Virus record (IMG/VR): IMGVR_UViG_3300029258_005088
Direction: 5' to 3' (one strand)
Source: a virus
Length of the DNA stretch: 64,000 nucleotides
Position numbers and translations under genes: made by a program. The number at the start of each line of letters is the position of its first letter. Positions within the stretch are counted from its first letter, which is position 1. Below the pieces are notes generated by a model. It was not told where the DNA came from. It worked only from the letters and a program-made list of their open reading frames with translations, and searched no databases. Below, piece by piece: positions 52,942 to 56,696 of this stretch.

Positions 52942-53046
52942 CTCCTTGGTTGGGGGTTTGAGCACTATTAGCCGGACTCACGCAGGGAAGGAGCCCTGCG
53001 CTACACCGGACCTCCCGGGCCTATTCCCGGGAGGCAGCCTTGCACC
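52942..53046 (-). ncRNA. Twister-sister-like ribozyme, copy A (predicted cleavage between 52960 and 52959)
   Basis: GGU-GCAAG-GCU-[P3]-CCGG-UGUA-[hairpin, CUCCUU loop]-GAGU-CCGG-CUAAU-AGU-GCUCA-AACC. Confidence 0.7.
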
Positions 53047-53894
53047 TACTTGCAGTAAAGGACTGCACACCTATCCACCAGCTCCACCAGTTCCTCCAGG
53101 GGAAGGAGGCTGTGGGTGGAGGCCGTGAATCCGCCCTGATGGACGAACTTCACTCGATCATCCAGACGGACCTTTCGGAAGTCAAGGCCCAACTCGTCGT
53201 AGCGATACAACGAGTAACCGGATCCCCTGGTATCGGGTGTGATCGTGAACCCGATATCGGGGTGGAACCTTCGACGGAACTGATCCATCCCGAAGGCTCC
53301 TCTCTCCATGCCGTTGACGGCGGGCATGAAGAGCCCGGAGAGGCCGGCTGCCTGGACTAACTGCGAATGGTTCGCGTAGTCCTCCATGCGTCGGTCCAGA
53401 TGAGCTACGTGGCTGAAGAGATTCTCTCCGAGCCTCTTCAAACACTCCCATACGAAGTCTCCCGGTCTGATGACCTGGTGGCTTCCGAACTCATCCAGAA
53501 GCCATGACTCGATGGGATTGCTCATCAAGCAGCCGACCAGCTTGGCCGTGCCGATATTTGCCCACTGGGCCACACCGGCATTCCCCTTGTTATCCCGAAT
53601 AATCTTCGGGATATACCAGCCGAAGGCGTCTTGGAACGCCCTCGACATATCCATGGCCGACAGGACCATGGAGAAACAACAGTCCGTGGACGTCACTCCA
53701 TGGTGATCATAGTTGTTTCTCCAGGGCTCCCAGAGCCCTCCTTCGTCGAGAACCCATACGCTGGGGTCCTCGAGCTCTTCGGCCGTCGGCTCTCGCCGCT
53801 CTATGCGATCCACGCTAGTTGTATGGATCACGTCGGCACAGGCCTTCATCTCGTCGAAATGGGCCTTTCCATCGTGGGTCACTATGTAAGACAT
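53046..53894 (-). CDS. MYG1-like DHH-family exonuclease
   Basis: IVTHDGKAHFDE, VLDEGG..NYDHH, FVHQGGF parallel MYG1 THxGxFHxDE, DVGG..FDHHQ, FVHxxGF. Confidence 0.8.
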   Translation of the reverse strand: MSYIVTHDGKAHFDEMKACADVIHTTSVDRIERREPTAEELEDPSVWVLDEGGLWEPWRNNYDHHGVTSTDCCFSMVLSAMDMSRAFQDAFGWYIPKIIRDNKGNAGVAQWANIGTAKLVGCLMSNPIESWLLDEFGSHQVIRPGDFVWECLKRLGENLFSHVAHLDRRMEDYANHSQLVQAAGLSGLFMPAVNGMERGAFGMDQFRRRFHPDIGFTITPDTRGSGYSLYRYDELGLDFRKVRLDDRVKFVHQGGFTASTHSLLPLEELVELVDRCAVLYCK

Positions 53895-53900
53895 AGTTTA

Positions 53901-54005
53901 CTCCTTGGTTGGGGGTTTGAGCACTTTTAACCGGACTCACGCGGAGGAAGGAGCCTCCGCGCTACACCGGACCGGGAGCCCTATTGCTCCCGGCAGCCTT
54001 GCACC
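53901..54005 (-). ncRNA. Twister-sister-like ribozyme, copy B (predicted cleavage 53919/53918)
   Basis: Same core; P3 CCGGGAGC/GCUCCCGG; inserted hairpin GCGGAGG-CUCCUU-CCUCCGC. Confidence 0.7.
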
Positions 54006-54006
54006 G

Positions 54007-54330
54007 CTATACCCTGCTCATGTAAAGCATGAGCCTGCCGTCCCGTATGACTGGACGGCTGCTCTCGACCCTGCGAATGTCTCTTTCCCAGACGAACGCA
54101 ACGGGTTCCGGAAGGGGTATGTCTTCCGGAGCTACCCGAGGCTCAGTCTCGAAGATGTCTTCGAGCTGGTCCTCTACCGCCTGCTCGTACCGCTCCCGAC
54201 GGTACTGAGCTCTGAGGTAGACCTCGAATCGATCCCGGGAAAAGATCCGATACTGGCCGAAACTGGTTCTCACCAGCTTCCCGGTCGTGTGGTTGTCCCG
54301 GCGTTTGTGTTTCACGCTCTTTGGCGACAT
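54007..54330 (-). CDS. Hypothetical protein (107 aa)
   Basis: Start MSPKSVK after AAGGAG. Confidence 0.7.
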   Translation of the reverse strand: MSPKSVKHKRRDNHTTGKLVRTSFGQYRIFSRDRFEVYLRAQYRRERYEQAVEDQLEDIFETEPRVAPEDIPLPEPVAFVWERDIRRVESSRPVIRDGRLMLYMSRV

Positions 54331-54337
54331 AAGGATC

Positions 54338-54443
54338 CTCCTTGGTTTGGGGTTTAAGCACACTTATTCGGACTCACGCGGAGGAAGGAGCCTCCGCGCT
54401 ACACCGATCCCCCCGGGCCTATCCCGGGGGGCTGCCATGCACC
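54338..54443 (-). ncRNA. Twister-sister-like ribozyme, copy C (predicted cleavage 54356/54355)
   Basis: P2 GCA/UGU and P4 UCGG/CCGA compensatory variants; GCUUA at the predicted site. Confidence 0.65.
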
Positions 54444-54444
54444 A

Positions 54445-54473
54445 CTAGGCCTTTTAACGTCCTGCCCAGGACA
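54445..54473 (-). ncRNA. H-type pseudoknot-like module upstream of copy C
   Basis: GUCC-UGGGCA-GGAC-GUUAAAAG-GCCUA; the loop UGGGC can pair with GCCUA. Confidence 0.5.
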
Positions 54474-54478
54474 TGGGT

Positions 54479-54739
54479 CTATACTGTCCCGACAAGCCTG
54501 TCGAGCCTACCCGGACTCGTGAAGTGGGTGCGTTCCTTCGCACCCTCCACGCGGTTGCCGTACTGGTCGCATTCTACGACCGTTACCTCCCACAGACCAT
54601 CACTGCCCGGGTCGAACGAGACCACCAAGCTATGGTTCTCCCAGTAATGACACCACAGAATGTTTCCTGGTTTGAACCACTCATCCACCGGCATCTCAGC
54701 CGGGCCGGGAAGGTCTTGTCTTTCGATTGCAGTCATCAT
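54479..54739 (-). CDS. Hypothetical protein (86 aa)
   Basis: Start MMTAIERQ after AAGGAGG. Confidence 0.7.
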   Translation of the reverse strand: MMTAIERQDLPGPAEMPVDEWFKPGNILWCHYWENHSLVVSFDPGSDGLWEVTVVECDQYGNRVEGAKERTHFTSPGRLDRLVGTV

Positions 54740-54746
54740 AGCAATC

Positions 54747-55302: not shown

Positions 55303-55308
55303 AACTAT

Positions 55309-55404
55309 CTCCTTGTTGGGGGTTTGAGCACTTTTAACCGGACTCGGGCGGGGGAAGGCCCCCCGCCCTACACCGGACCTGCTAAATGCAGGCAGCCATG
55401 CACC
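55309..55404 (-). ncRNA. Twister-sister-like ribozyme, copy E (predicted cleavage 55326/55325)
   Basis: Short P3 CCUGC-AUUUA-GCAGG; inserted all-GC hairpin with a CCUU-containing loop; core residues intact. Confidence 0.65.
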
Positions 55405-55508
55405 CTGCAAAGCCACTCCGTTACAAGCATCCCTGGGAGTCTCCAGGCCTTGTACGGGTATTGCGCGGCAATGCGTATGGGAGTTTAACGTCCTATCCCG
55501 GGACGGAC
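55405..55508 (-). ncRNA. Extended structured spacer beginning with the pseudoknot-like module
   Basis: CGUCC-CGGGAUA-GGACG-UUAAA, then CUCC/GGAG, AUUGC/GCAAU, UACAAG/CUUGUA and CCUGG/CCAGG complementarities. Confidence 0.45.
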
Positions 55509-56048
55509 CTAGCAGGTGCTAGGCCGGAACGACTTCAGGGCGGCCTCTCTGGCCGGGTCTCCCTTGGCATCGTTCTTGAGGGCCTCAAGGGCCTCGTCCC
55601 CTGCCTTGAGCACTCGGTAATCATCCGAGAACGAATAATACCAATCCATCTTCTGCAGACGGACCAGGTACTCCTCGTCGCATACCAAAGGCTCTTTTTC
55701 GGGCTCTTCCTCGGGCTCTTCCTCAGGCTCTTCCGACTCCCGTATAGGGGGCCTGAAGGCGTCGACGAAGGATTTGAAGATGCCTGGCTTATCGCCTTTC
55801 TTCTTCGCCTTCGCCTTCGCCTTTGCCTTCGGACGGACGAGAATACTCTCGCCCAGCACGAATCTGCCCAGAGCCTGGGGGACGTCGTTGGGGGCTTCCC
55901 AGACGTCCTCGACGAAGACCGACAGGACACCCACGCCGGGGTGTCTGTTGGCGAACTCGAGCTCGGCCTCTTCCCTCGAAGAGGCGGCGGGGATTCCTAG
56001 ATGGCCGTGTTGGCCAGTGGAATCGTCATACCAGTTTACGATGAACAT
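55509..56048 (-). CDS. Hypothetical protein with KA and EEP repeats (179 aa)
   Basis: Start MFIVNW; PKAKAKAKAKKK and EEPEEEPEEEPEKEP; C-terminal DWYYSFSDD. Confidence 0.75.
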   Translation of the reverse strand: MFIVNWYDDSTGQHGHLGIPAASSREEAELEFANRHPGVGVLSVFVEDVWEAPNDVPQALGRFVLGESILVRPKAKAKAKAKKKGDKPGIFKSFVDAFRPPIRESEEPEEEPEEEPEKEPLVCDEEYLVRLQKMDWYYSFSDDYRVLKAGDEALEALKNDAKGDPAREAALKSFRPSTC

Positions 56049-56054
56049 GGTAAT

Positions 56055-56159
56055 CTCCTTGGTTTGGGGTTTGAGCACAATTAACCGGACTCACGCGGAG
56101 GAAGGAGCCTCCGCGCTACACCGGACCTGTGACCCTATTGTCACAGGCTGCCTTGCACC
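56055..56159 (-). ncRNA. Twister-sister-like ribozyme, copy F (predicted cleavage 56073/56072)
   Basis: P3 CCUGUGAC-AAUAGG-GUCACAGG; P2 GCA/UGU. Confidence 0.7.
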
Positions 56160-56161
56160 GC

Positions 56162-56190
56162 TCGGGTAGATTAACGTCCTCCCCAGGACG
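56162..56190 (-). ncRNA. Pseudoknot-like module upstream of copy F
   Basis: CGUCC-UGGGGA-GGACG-UUAAU-CUA-CCCG. Confidence 0.45.
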
Positions 56191-56198
56191 GTTGTGCC

Positions 56199-56585
56199 TC
56201 AGACGAGCTCGTGCTCGTAATCGGCGTATTCCCACAGGTCCTTGGACTCGGAGTTCATATCGAAATCCACCTTCGTCAGTTCCTGGAGGAACCGGATCAA
56301 CCGGTTCCAGTAACGGAACTTGAAGCCTTCATAAGACATCGTCTCGAAGGTCTTAGACTCCTTGAACCCTGTACGGGACAGGGTCCTGGCGGACTCCTCG
56401 TGAACGGTGACGAACGTAAGCGTGTCCGTCGTTCCTTTCAGAGGAGGGGTTATGAGGGCGCAACGATCGATCAGCTTGTGACCGATCAGGATGCTCTCCT
56501 CGTTTACCCTGGACCGACCTGCGATCCATCCCGTGCCGATGAGTTCACGATTGATTCCGTCGATGAGCAGTTGATTAGCTGCCAT
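56199..56585 (-). CDS. Hypothetical protein (128 aa)
   Basis: Start MAANQLL after AAGGAG. Confidence 0.7.
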   Translation of the reverse strand: MAANQLLIDGINRELIGTGWIAGRSRVNEESILIGHKLIDRCALITPPLKGTTDTLTFVTVHEESARTLSRTGFKESKTFETMSYEGFKFRYWNRLIRFLQELTKVDFDMNSESKDLWEYADYEHELV

Positions 56586-56592
56586 AGGATAT

Positions 56593-56696
56593 CTCCTTGG
56601 TTTGGGGTTTGAGCACAATTAACCGGACTCACGCGGAGGAAGGAACCTCCGCACTACACCGGACCGAGGACCCTATGCCCTCGGCTGCCATGCACC
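56593..56696 (-). ncRNA. Twister-sister-like ribozyme, copy G (predicted cleavage 56611/56610)
   Basis: Same core; inserted hairpin loop UUCCUU; P3 CCGAGG/CCUCGG. Confidence 0.7.

Follow-up and report, generated by a model that had tools for sequence, protein, structure and literature searches.

A candidate twister-sister-class ribozyme variant at the internal junctions of a phage operon

Each of the seven internal junctions of an eight-gene, minus-strand operon in an uncultured phage of ~200 kb holds one copy of a structured element of 84–93 nt (P1 to P1), a family that a repeat search recovers. On balance, the sequence comparisons below favor reading this element as a divergent self-cleaving ribozyme of the twister-sister (TS) class that would cut the operon mRNA into single-gene pieces. 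The novelty lies in the structural variant; ribozyme-punctuated phage operons have been known in the literature since 2011.

All the evidence on the element is drawn from seven paralogues of a single genome. When a covariance model is built from these copies, they score 101–136 bits against it, and the runner-up in the window, namely the whole 64-kb stretch of DNA analyzed, reaches 15 bits. The family lies where a previous sequence-only reading of the window had placed it, and all seven cut coordinates proposed there are reproduced exactly from the element sequences:

53046-52955, minus strand: element A, predicted cut 52960/52959
54005-53914, minus strand: element B, predicted cut 53919/53918
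54443-54351, minus strand: element C, P4 UCGG/CCGA, cleavage strand GCUU↓AA (arrow, predicted cut), predicted cut 54356/54355
54850-54760, minus strand: element D, P4 UCGG/CCGA, cleavage strand GCUU↓AA, predicted cut 54765/54764
55404-55321, minus strand: element E, the shortest copy and the one that diverges most (P3 short, loop GCCUU), predicted cut 55326/55325
56159-56068, minus strand: element F, predicted cut 56073/56072
56696-56606, minus strand: element G, predicted cut 56611/56610

The same reading had put one element before every gene. This does not hold for the first cistron, g0. A terminator scan and sequence reading place intrinsic terminators at both ends of the unit, and the region 56939..56971 together with the extended -10-like TGGCATAAT is likely to be the start of the operon transcript, if our promoter assignment is right. 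In the order of transcription, the boundaries and genes are:

57045..57081, minus strand: intrinsic terminator at the upstream boundary, closing the preceding gene (terminator scan, sequence reading)
56939..56971, minus strand: second hairpin and T-run, directly upstream of TGGCATAAT (sequence reading)
56937-56929, minus strand: extended -10-like TGGCATAAT
56699..56878, minus strand: g0, 59 aa, first cistron, no element upstream (ORF list, gene call on public contig)
56199..56585, minus strand: g1, 128 aa, no known family (ORF list, family searches, gene call)
55509..56048, minus strand: g2, 179 aa (ORF list, family search, gene call)
54886..55302, minus strand: g3, 138 aa (ORF list, gene call)
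54479..54739, minus strand: g4, 86 aa (ORF list, gene call)
54007..54330, minus strand: g5, 107 aa (ORF list, gene call)
53046..53894, minus strand: g6, 282 aa, MYG1-family (DHH-like) hydrolase (Pfam PF03690 and homologues)
52535..52939, minus strand: g7, 134 aa, hydrophobic N-terminus, last cistron (ORF list, gene call)
52495..52530, minus strand: intrinsic terminator GGAACGG...CCGUUCC + U7, closing the operon (sequence reading)

The family searches run assign no family or function to most of the neighboring genes; g6 has full-length MYG1-family homologues at ~30% identity. The junction that holds element E contains ~100 nt of extra sequence besides the element.

The element reads GGU-GCAWG-GCW-(P3, loop AUAGG)-YCG-G-UGUA-(hairpin)-GAGU-C-CGR-NUAAN-WGU-GCUY↓AA-ACC. 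In the 7-copy alignment 96.5% of cells are paired and double changes are seen at 11 of 29 pairs, a result reached by 0/500 shuffles, and sliding the partners by one column lowers pairing to ~49%. Three helices of the element covary, and G-U pairs form on the coding strand only. Taken together, the covarying pairs, the pairing, the shuffles and the strand-specific G-U pairs indicate a genuine structure at work in the RNA. P1 (GGU/ACC) consists of three invariant pairs and is therefore uninformative for or against a helix. P2 comprises four pairs (G-C, a bulged G, then GCW/WGU), one of which covaries: columns 15-87 are A-U in four copies and U-A in three. P3, a variable hairpin with loop AUAGG, stacks directly on P2, differs in sequence in every copy and contains six covarying pairs. 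P4 (YCGG/CCGR) has one covarying pair, at columns 42-81, C-G in five copies and U-A in two. A 22–24-nt hairpin of 7–9 bp, also covarying, is inserted between the L4-like strands, and a 5-nt linker, NUAAN, stands where P5 would be. These P2, P3 and P4 changes, and the invariance of the core strands across all seven copies, agree with the sequence-only reading. The 10 L4-like positions and all but two of the 11 L1 positions are fixed in the seven copies, while P3 and the inner stem always differ; with these two stems diverged and the loop positions kept, the core is under selection and the copies are not recent duplicates. RNAalifold proposes an alternative register, which the P2 covariation at columns 15-87 does not support; these columns favor the TS register.

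The comparison with TS was made by hand, against the Rfam consensus (RF02681) and two crystal constructs. For the class, PMC5660989 cites Weinberg et al. 2015, and structures 5Y85/5Y87 and 5T5A are available. The four-way construct runs ACCC-GCAAG-GCC...G-UGCAAGU-C...GGC-GCUC↓AU-GGGU, and the Rfam consensus has the same order, a 4-bp P1 and the P3 loop 'auaag'; the TS anatomy given in the sequence-only reading is correct by both literature and consensus. The element shares with TS the order P1-L1-P2-P3-P4-...-P2'-L1'-P1', both L1 strands, a short P1 (three pairs here), a P2 that continues directly as P3, a P3 loop rich in AUA, and a G-C pair that closes P4 around UG(Y)A...AGU. The 5-nt strand of L1 is GCAAG in A, B and F and GCAUG in C, D, E and G; the 6-nt strand is GCUCAA in five copies and GCUUAA in two, with G59, C60, U61 and A63 invariant. 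The published TS residue roles map one to one (G5, C6, A7, A8, G9 / G59, C60, U61, C62↓A63), and the invariant nucleotides coincide with 10–11 of 11 catalytic-loop positions and with 7–8 of 9 L4 positions. The helix order, both L1 strands and the position of the C↓A step in the match first claimed stand, while the L4 homology is weaker than that of L1.

The only variable L1 positions of the element are those that tolerate change in published mutagenesis: in TS, A8U lowers cleavage and does not abolish it, and any base is accepted at C62. A63, which is invariant in the element, is essential in TS. In the TS-like ribozyme of LINE-1, the change equivalent to A8U has a relative activity (RA') of 0.8, and the A at position 64 (GCUCAA), where TS has U, is the natural LINE-1/env-33 form (eLife 2024, PMC11620745). 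The lantern ribozymes of human LINE-1 and OR4K15 possess the identical GCUC↓AA strand and a 5-nt GCNAG, tolerate the A-to-U change opposite U61, and demonstrate that L1 between two short helices suffices for cleavage (PMC11620745). Such a GCNAG / GCUC↓AA loop between two short helices is present in the element, and a descriptor of it finds 7/7 copies. The lantern ribozymes lack the P3/P4 periphery, cleave at ~0.1 per minute and are eukaryotic, whereas the element keeps the periphery and is found in a phage.

Several departures set the element apart from canonical TS. Its predicted alignment to the Rfam TS model fails: nothing in the window matches at the gathering score (34 bits), the range 52800-56800 has no match at E<=10, and copy B searched by itself gives none either. 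P5 is replaced by the linker, with P3 and P4 in TS order; the known three-way TS form is one without P3 (not without P5). The first P2 pair is G-U where TS has G-C, and P2 as a whole is GCW/WGU as against GCC/GGC. The pair equivalent to C12-G56, which in TS forms a base triple with G35, is A-U or U-A. UGUA/GAGU is an internal loop between two helices and not a terminal L4; G-UGUA and (G)AGU-C are invariant but parted by the covarying hairpin. In the TS crystal structure A7 intercalates between A33 and A34, and the interruption of L4 at exactly this step precludes the canonical T1 docking in its published form. UGUA/GAGU could alternatively be an internal loop of the loop-E or bulged-G type, with no relation to L4.

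A second reading, which we consider improbable, is that of a TS-derived fold that has lost catalysis, or cleaves only very slowly, and serves as an intercistronic structural module that insulates the Shine-Dalgarno (SD) sequence of each cistron from what lies upstream, stabilizes the RNA and/or gates translation through an anti-SD loop. In its favor, the docking loop is disrupted, P2 and A8 are off consensus, the Rfam model fails, and a review (PMC6765202) notes ribozyme-associated RNAs that showed no cleavage in tests. Against this, seven diverged copies keep the catalytic L1 residues and the scissile C/U↓A step, which a purely structural role would not require, and minimal TS-like ribozymes cleave without any L4 (PMC11620745).

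The gating part of that reading turns on the inserted hairpin: its loop, CUCCUU, and the AAGGAG found 13 nt downstream of the predicted cut are complementary. The duplex is worth -7.1 to -8.4 kcal/mol in five copies and is weaker in E (-3.3) and G (-5.3), and the complementarity is not clearly better than that of shuffled loops; a role as a translation switch is thus only suggestive. A catalytic version can also be drawn, in which the hairpin is a functional anti-SD clamp: CUCCUU would pair with AAGGAG, tether a substrate strand otherwise held by the 3-bp P1 alone, and mask the ribosome-binding site until cleavage licenses translation. We regard this clamp as doubtful.

The genomic layout supports the TS reading, because canonical TS ribozymes in phage contigs are laid out in the same way. 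A pattern scan of IMG/VR yields 135 TS at 110 loci, and all 23 of those tested against Rfam are confirmed, at 79–91 bits. Many of these loci hold 2–4 copies per 1–2 kb. Between the preceding stop codon and P1 the median distance is 6 nt, and the stop is overlapped in 24/109; an SD and a start codon follow within 110 nt in 96/134, after a leader with a median of 44.5 nt whose first 20 nt past P1 are 80% A+C. The copies of the element likewise form an array, with stop-to-P1 gaps of -1, 1, 2, 35, 35, 39 and 104 nt: the G of the g6 UAG stop is the first base of P1 in element A, only 1 nt separates the g5 stop from P1 in element B, and the stop upstream of element G ends 2 nt before its P1. An A/C-rich leader follows, and then the SD AAGGAG and AUG. 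This shared layout of array, abutting stop, A/C leader, SD and start is a pattern drawn from the IMG/VR examples and not a formal definition of TS. The element differs in having seven copies per operon, compared with 2–4 in the canonical arrays sampled, and a leader half as long: the short leader foreseen in the sequence-only reading measures 23–25 nt to AUG (20 nt to the first AUG in copy A), compared with a median of ~44 nt.

In T7, RNase III sites between genes are structured RNAs whose processing gives shorter mRNAs with hairpin-protected 3' ends, and the element might by analogy be bound or processed by a protein, for example RNase III or RNase E of the host or a factor encoded by the phage, its TS likeness being coincidental. 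A conserved two-hairpin structure at gene junctions fits such a site, and the L1+P1/P2 descriptor is not very rare, with 0.52 matches per shuffled window and 2 extra in the real one. We nevertheless judge this very unlikely: the coincidence with the TS catalytic loop keeps the same strand order and helix context and extends to L4 and a similar P3 loop, and the layout is that of canonical TS. A classical RNase III substrate would moreover need longer and less branched helices; the T7 sites are long duplex hairpins cut by a host protein nuclease, whereas the cut proposed here is the work of the RNA itself.

A DNA-level repeat (a cassette boundary, an attC-like recombination site or a transcription signal), with an RNA fold that lacks function, is the least probable reading of all: same-orientation small genes of no known family with ~100-nt structured repeats between them, a repeat (family D6) that also takes in ~20 nt at the 3' ends of two genes and a public assembly that breaks inside element B would suit it, but attC does not have the branched fold and long invariant single-stranded segments found here, G-U pairing is strand-specific, the SD belongs to the unit, intrinsic terminators occur at the operon ends only, and a promoter/terminator scan finds no promoter-like sites within the elements. 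An integron attC-type site in particular, which is a single long, imperfect hairpin with R/L core sites, poorly conserved in sequence and adjacent to an integrase, is rejected by the branched fold, the >50 invariant positions and the lack of a recombinase match among neighboring genes in the searches run.

A second, smaller module, the hairpin GUCCU-GGGC-AGGAC followed by GUUAA, precedes three of the elements:

54454..54472, minus strand: small module, between the stop codon and element C
54861-54879, minus strand: small module copy before element D
56171-56189, minus strand: small module copy before element F

The three matches compare with 0.02 expected by chance; a diverged copy lies before E, and there is little covariation. 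A pistol ribozyme, in which the loop of a P1 hairpin makes a pseudoknot and P2 and P3 accompany a G↓U cleavage site, was rejected for this module: there is no Rfam pistol match at E<=10, and the likeness to a pistol construct sequence is limited to the hairpin and the GUUAA linker, without P2 or P3.

On the favored reading, that of a divergent TS-class ribozyme, the eight-gene operon would be transcribed as one RNA, each element would fold after the upstream ribosome departs, and putative self-cleavage would separate Y from A in GCUY↓AAACC. This would leave the upstream mRNA with the compact ribozyme fold and a 2',3'-cyclic phosphate at its 3' end. A 5'-OH would start the downstream mRNA, in a leader of 23–25 nt that is unstructured, rich in A and C, and carries AAGGAG and AUG. 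We infer both this catalysis and the monocistronic products, and any effect on expression would follow from them. Whether 5'-OH ends would protect depends on the host; in Bacillus, RNase J1 preferentially degrades the 5'-OH product of glmS. Clustered hammerhead ribozymes offer a precedent: they flank prophage genes, and the cutting of polycistronic RNA to gene-length pieces was proposed for them and seen in vitro for three triple arrays (Perreault et al. 2011, PMC3088659). The element belongs to another ribozyme class, lies outside its Rfam model, fills all internal junctions and has an SD-complementary hairpin built in. Were the clamp true, translation of each cistron would need self-cleavage, making the element a ribozyme-gated switch and a representative of a TS lineage that current models do not detect.

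The window forms part of a 201,176-bp metagenomic contig, k141_1722295 of ENA record ERZ27256770, and encodes multisubunit-RNA-polymerase-like proteins of a kind typical for very large phages. The nearest GenBank phage relatives share only 28-30% identity in the RNA-polymerase-like protein, and a search of GenBank phages at the DNA level returned nothing. The operon studied here comprises eight small genes, g0-g7 in order of transcription, encoding proteins of 59-282 amino acids; the gene calls of the public contig give the same eight. Only g6, a MYG1 hydrolase, belongs to a known family, and a homologue search with g2 detected none.

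52,495-57,081, minus strand: transcription unit, with intrinsic terminators at both ends

A single 84-93-nt element occupies each of the seven internal junctions of this operon (elements A-G). A covariance model made from these elements, R1, picks out just these seven copies from the window; they score 101-136 bits, the runner-up 15 bits. The evidence base consists of seven paralogues from one genome; two further assemblies of this phage show no sequence differences and so provide no usable population variation. Of the pair cells in the seven-copy alignment, 96.5% hold standard pairs, and 11 of 29 pairs change on both sides; neither value was reached in any of 500 shuffles, and sliding the partners by one column lowers pairing to ~49%. 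These figures bear out the covarying stems claimed by the sequence-only reading. The sequences of P3 and the inner hairpin are different in nearly all copies, one covarying pair is found in each of P2 and P4, and P1 (GGU/ACC) is invariant in all copies and is therefore neither supported nor contradicted. Copies folded singly adopt the same architecture (z-scores of -2.0 to -2.8), with fold energies of -39 to -53 kcal/mol. Since the G-U pairs form on the coding strand only, the element is an RNA feature, and its structure is real.

To compare the element with the twister-sister ribozyme (TS, Rfam RF02681), TS anatomy was rebuilt from four-way crystal residue descriptions, both crystal construct sequences and the Rfam consensus printed for fetched phage TS. 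The two can be written side by side as follows.

Canonical TS: P1 (4 bp)-GCAAG-P2 GCC-P3 hairpin (loop auaag)-P4 capped by G-UGCAAG(C/U)-C-P5 hairpin-GGC-GCUC|AU-P1'
Element: GGU-GCA(A/U)G-GCW-P3 hairpin (loop AUAGG)-YCG-G-UGUA-[22-24-nt hairpin]-GAGU-C-CGR-NUAAN-WGU-GCU(C/U)|AA-ACC

From this by-hand comparison it follows that the order of helices, both strands of the catalytic loop (L1) and the position of the scissile step coincide, as had been proposed from sequence inspection. The equivalents of the essential A63 and of G5, C6, G59, C60 and U61 (TS crystal numbering) are invariant in all seven copies. At position 8 the element has A or U; TS tolerates A8U, and in the LINE-1 TS-like ribozyme, a minimal 'lantern' form, the corresponding substitution retains a relative activity of 0.8 (PMC11620745). 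Position 62 is C or U in the element, and any base works there in TS; position 64 is A, the natural form in env-33/LINE-1 (PMC11620745). The covarying pair in P2 supports the TS register over an alternative register obtained from RNAalifold. R1 run on canonical TS is uninformative, yielding an out-of-register alignment in which its 5' GGUGCAAG is placed on their L4 loop GGUGCAAG.

Alignment to the Rfam TS model, the check proposed with the original assignment, gave no hit whether the cutoff was the gathering score of 34 bits or E<=10, even with one copy searched alone. Twister, pistol, hatchet and hammerhead were likewise unmatched in these searches, and the Rfam matches that did appear, including Corio-PBP at 13.9 bits, were at chance level only. 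Three departures set the element apart from TS. First, a 5-nt linker stands in place of P5. Second, P2 is GCW/WGU, whereas TS has a conserved GCC/GGC, and the C12-G56 pair, which in TS forms a base triple with G35, is lost. Third, L4 is non-terminal: its halves flank an extra covarying hairpin, the helix that the sequence-only reading had placed inside L4, and they are split at the A33/A34 step, the point of A7 intercalation in the TS crystal structure. For this reason, L4 homology is the weakest part of the TS case. An alternative reading would make the UGUA/GAGU of the element a loop-E-like internal loop. In minimal TS-like ribozymes, cleavage proceeds although L4 is missing altogether (PMC11620745), so the deviation is compatible with catalysis. 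Slow cleavage could be one of its consequences. The segment CCGG-UUAAAAGUG, which resembles twister, lies in an element where the pseudoknot partners and an Rfam match to twister are both absent, and the twister reading was rejected. An attC reading of the array was rejected as well, the fold being branched and more than 50 of its positions invariant.

Genomic layout lends the assignment to the TS class independent support. A scan of IMG/VR with the canonical TS pattern returned at least 135 matches in at least 110 loci, showing canonical TS to be abundant in phage contigs; among the matches listed, many loci carry 2-4 copies per 1-2 kb. Three of these loci serve as examples.

L028:1168-4479, IMG/VR: canonical TS locus with four repeats of gene-stop-TS-leader-gene
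L015:357-1577, IMG/VR: canonical TS locus
L018:1916-2891, IMG/VR: canonical TS locus

Rfam confirms 23 of 23 TS matches in eight tested loci (79-91 bits), where RAGATH-5 RNAs are sometimes interleaved with canonical TS. Among the matches listed, canonical TS begin a median of 6 nt past the upstream stop codon (n = 109), with 24/109 overlapping the stop and 29/109 within 0-5 nt of it; a Shine-Dalgarno (SD) sequence and start codon follow within 110 nt in 96 of 134, after a leader with a median length of 44.5 nt whose first 20 nt past P1 are 80% A+C. The elements of the operon share this layout of stop codon, RNA, A/C-rich leader, SD and start. From stop to P1 the distance is -1, 1 and 2 nt for three of them, and 35, 35, 39 and 104 nt for the four in which an extra small hairpin module intervenes. 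The A/C-rich leader that follows reads AAACCCCAAACC-AAGGAG, and the AUG is 23-25 nt from the predicted cut. For elements A to G in turn, the predicted cuts fall at 52960/59, 53919/18, 54356/55, 54765/64, 55326/25, 56073/72 and 56611/10.

The small module, found at junctions C, D, E and F, is a hairpin GUCCU-GGGC-AGGAC followed by GUUAA.

54454-54472, minus strand: small hairpin module before element C
54861-54879, minus strand: small hairpin module before element D
near 55480-55505, minus strand: diverged copy before element E
56171-56189, minus strand: small hairpin module before element F

An H-type pseudoknot could form between the loop of this hairpin and GCCU/CCC a few nucleotides downstream. 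The module has no Rfam match and almost no covariation, and a pistol reading was rejected, P2/P3 and the G|U site being absent.

Sequence-pattern searches for relatives of the element, with four patterns against IMG/VR, two against JGI metagenomes and one against GTDB genomes, retrieved none. At nine loci the 5'-half pattern matched, but neither the 3' half nor P3 pairing is present and R1 gives no score; these are therefore chance matches. A loose TS-core descriptor (GCNWG / GCUNAW, 3-bp flanking helices) gave two more matches in the window, on the plus strand at 13697-13821 and 45053-45142, inside coding regions; with ~0.5 expected per window, these are probably due to chance. A Logan contig (SRR14699969), an independent assembly of the same phage, has its start within element B, 43 nt before the g6 AUG. 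Another run contains the sole close g6 homologue (57% identity), on a 976-bp contig that leaves 89 nt before the gene and 32 nt after it. These two observations fit assembly breaks induced by repeats, and so suggest that a related phage, in run SRR14699985, has similar repeats.

The most likely reading is self-cutting at each junction. The operon RNA would self-cleave at the GCUY|A of every internal junction; the upstream piece would keep its stop codon and end in a stable fold, and the downstream piece would begin with a short unstructured leader bearing the SD. The fold, the match to the TS core and the shared layout are demonstrated; catalysis, an end chemistry of 5'-OH and 2',3'-cyclic phosphate, and an effect on expression are inferred. 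Any protection of the RNA by 5'-OH ends, as proposed in the sequence-only reading, would depend on the host. In the inserted hairpin, the C/U-rich loop is retained while the stem varies: it reads CUCCUU except in G (UUCCUU) and E (GCCUU). Its complementarity to the downstream AAGGAG gives duplex energies of -7.1 to -8.4 kcal/mol for the five CUCCUU loops, against -5.3 for G and -3.3 for E, energies that shuffled loops often equal. Compensatory loop/SD change is impossible because the ribosome fixes the SD. The sequences are at most suggestive of an anti-SD role for this hairpin.

Two neighbouring features deserve mention. The window contains exactly two copies of the motif AGCTAYNNCTTGAAAA, on the minus strand at 52479-52494 and 57029-57044, each directly past the T-run of an operon-bracketing terminator; 9 of 100 shuffles reach two occurrences, placing it only marginally above chance, and it could represent a promoter of the phage, or a regulatory box, tied to the terminators. 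Within the array, g6 (53046-53894, minus strand) encodes a hydrolase of the MYG1 family (DHH-like) over its full length. In eukaryotes, MYG1 acts as a 3'-5' RNA exonuclease. A phage-encoded RNA exonuclease beside sites where the RNA is predicted to be cut may not be accidental.

Phage transcripts with gene-flanking ribozymes have been described since 2011 (PMC3088659) and treated in reviews (PMC6765202), so the arrangement of ribozymes between genes is already known. No description of the present structural variant, which lacks P5, carries a helix in L4 and an SD-complementary loop, and has a very short leader, was found in Rfam or the literature searched. For most self-cleaving ribozymes of bacteria and phages, no biological role has yet been defined (PMC6765202), and this operon offers a clean test case: eight genes, two terminators, a ribozyme-like element per internal junction and cuts predicted to the nucleotide. 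The SD-complementary inserted hairpin may connect RNA self-cleavage with the initiation of translation. TS-class ribozymes would here take forms invisible to Rfam, without P5 and with a helix in L4, and current phage counts of the class may therefore be too low.
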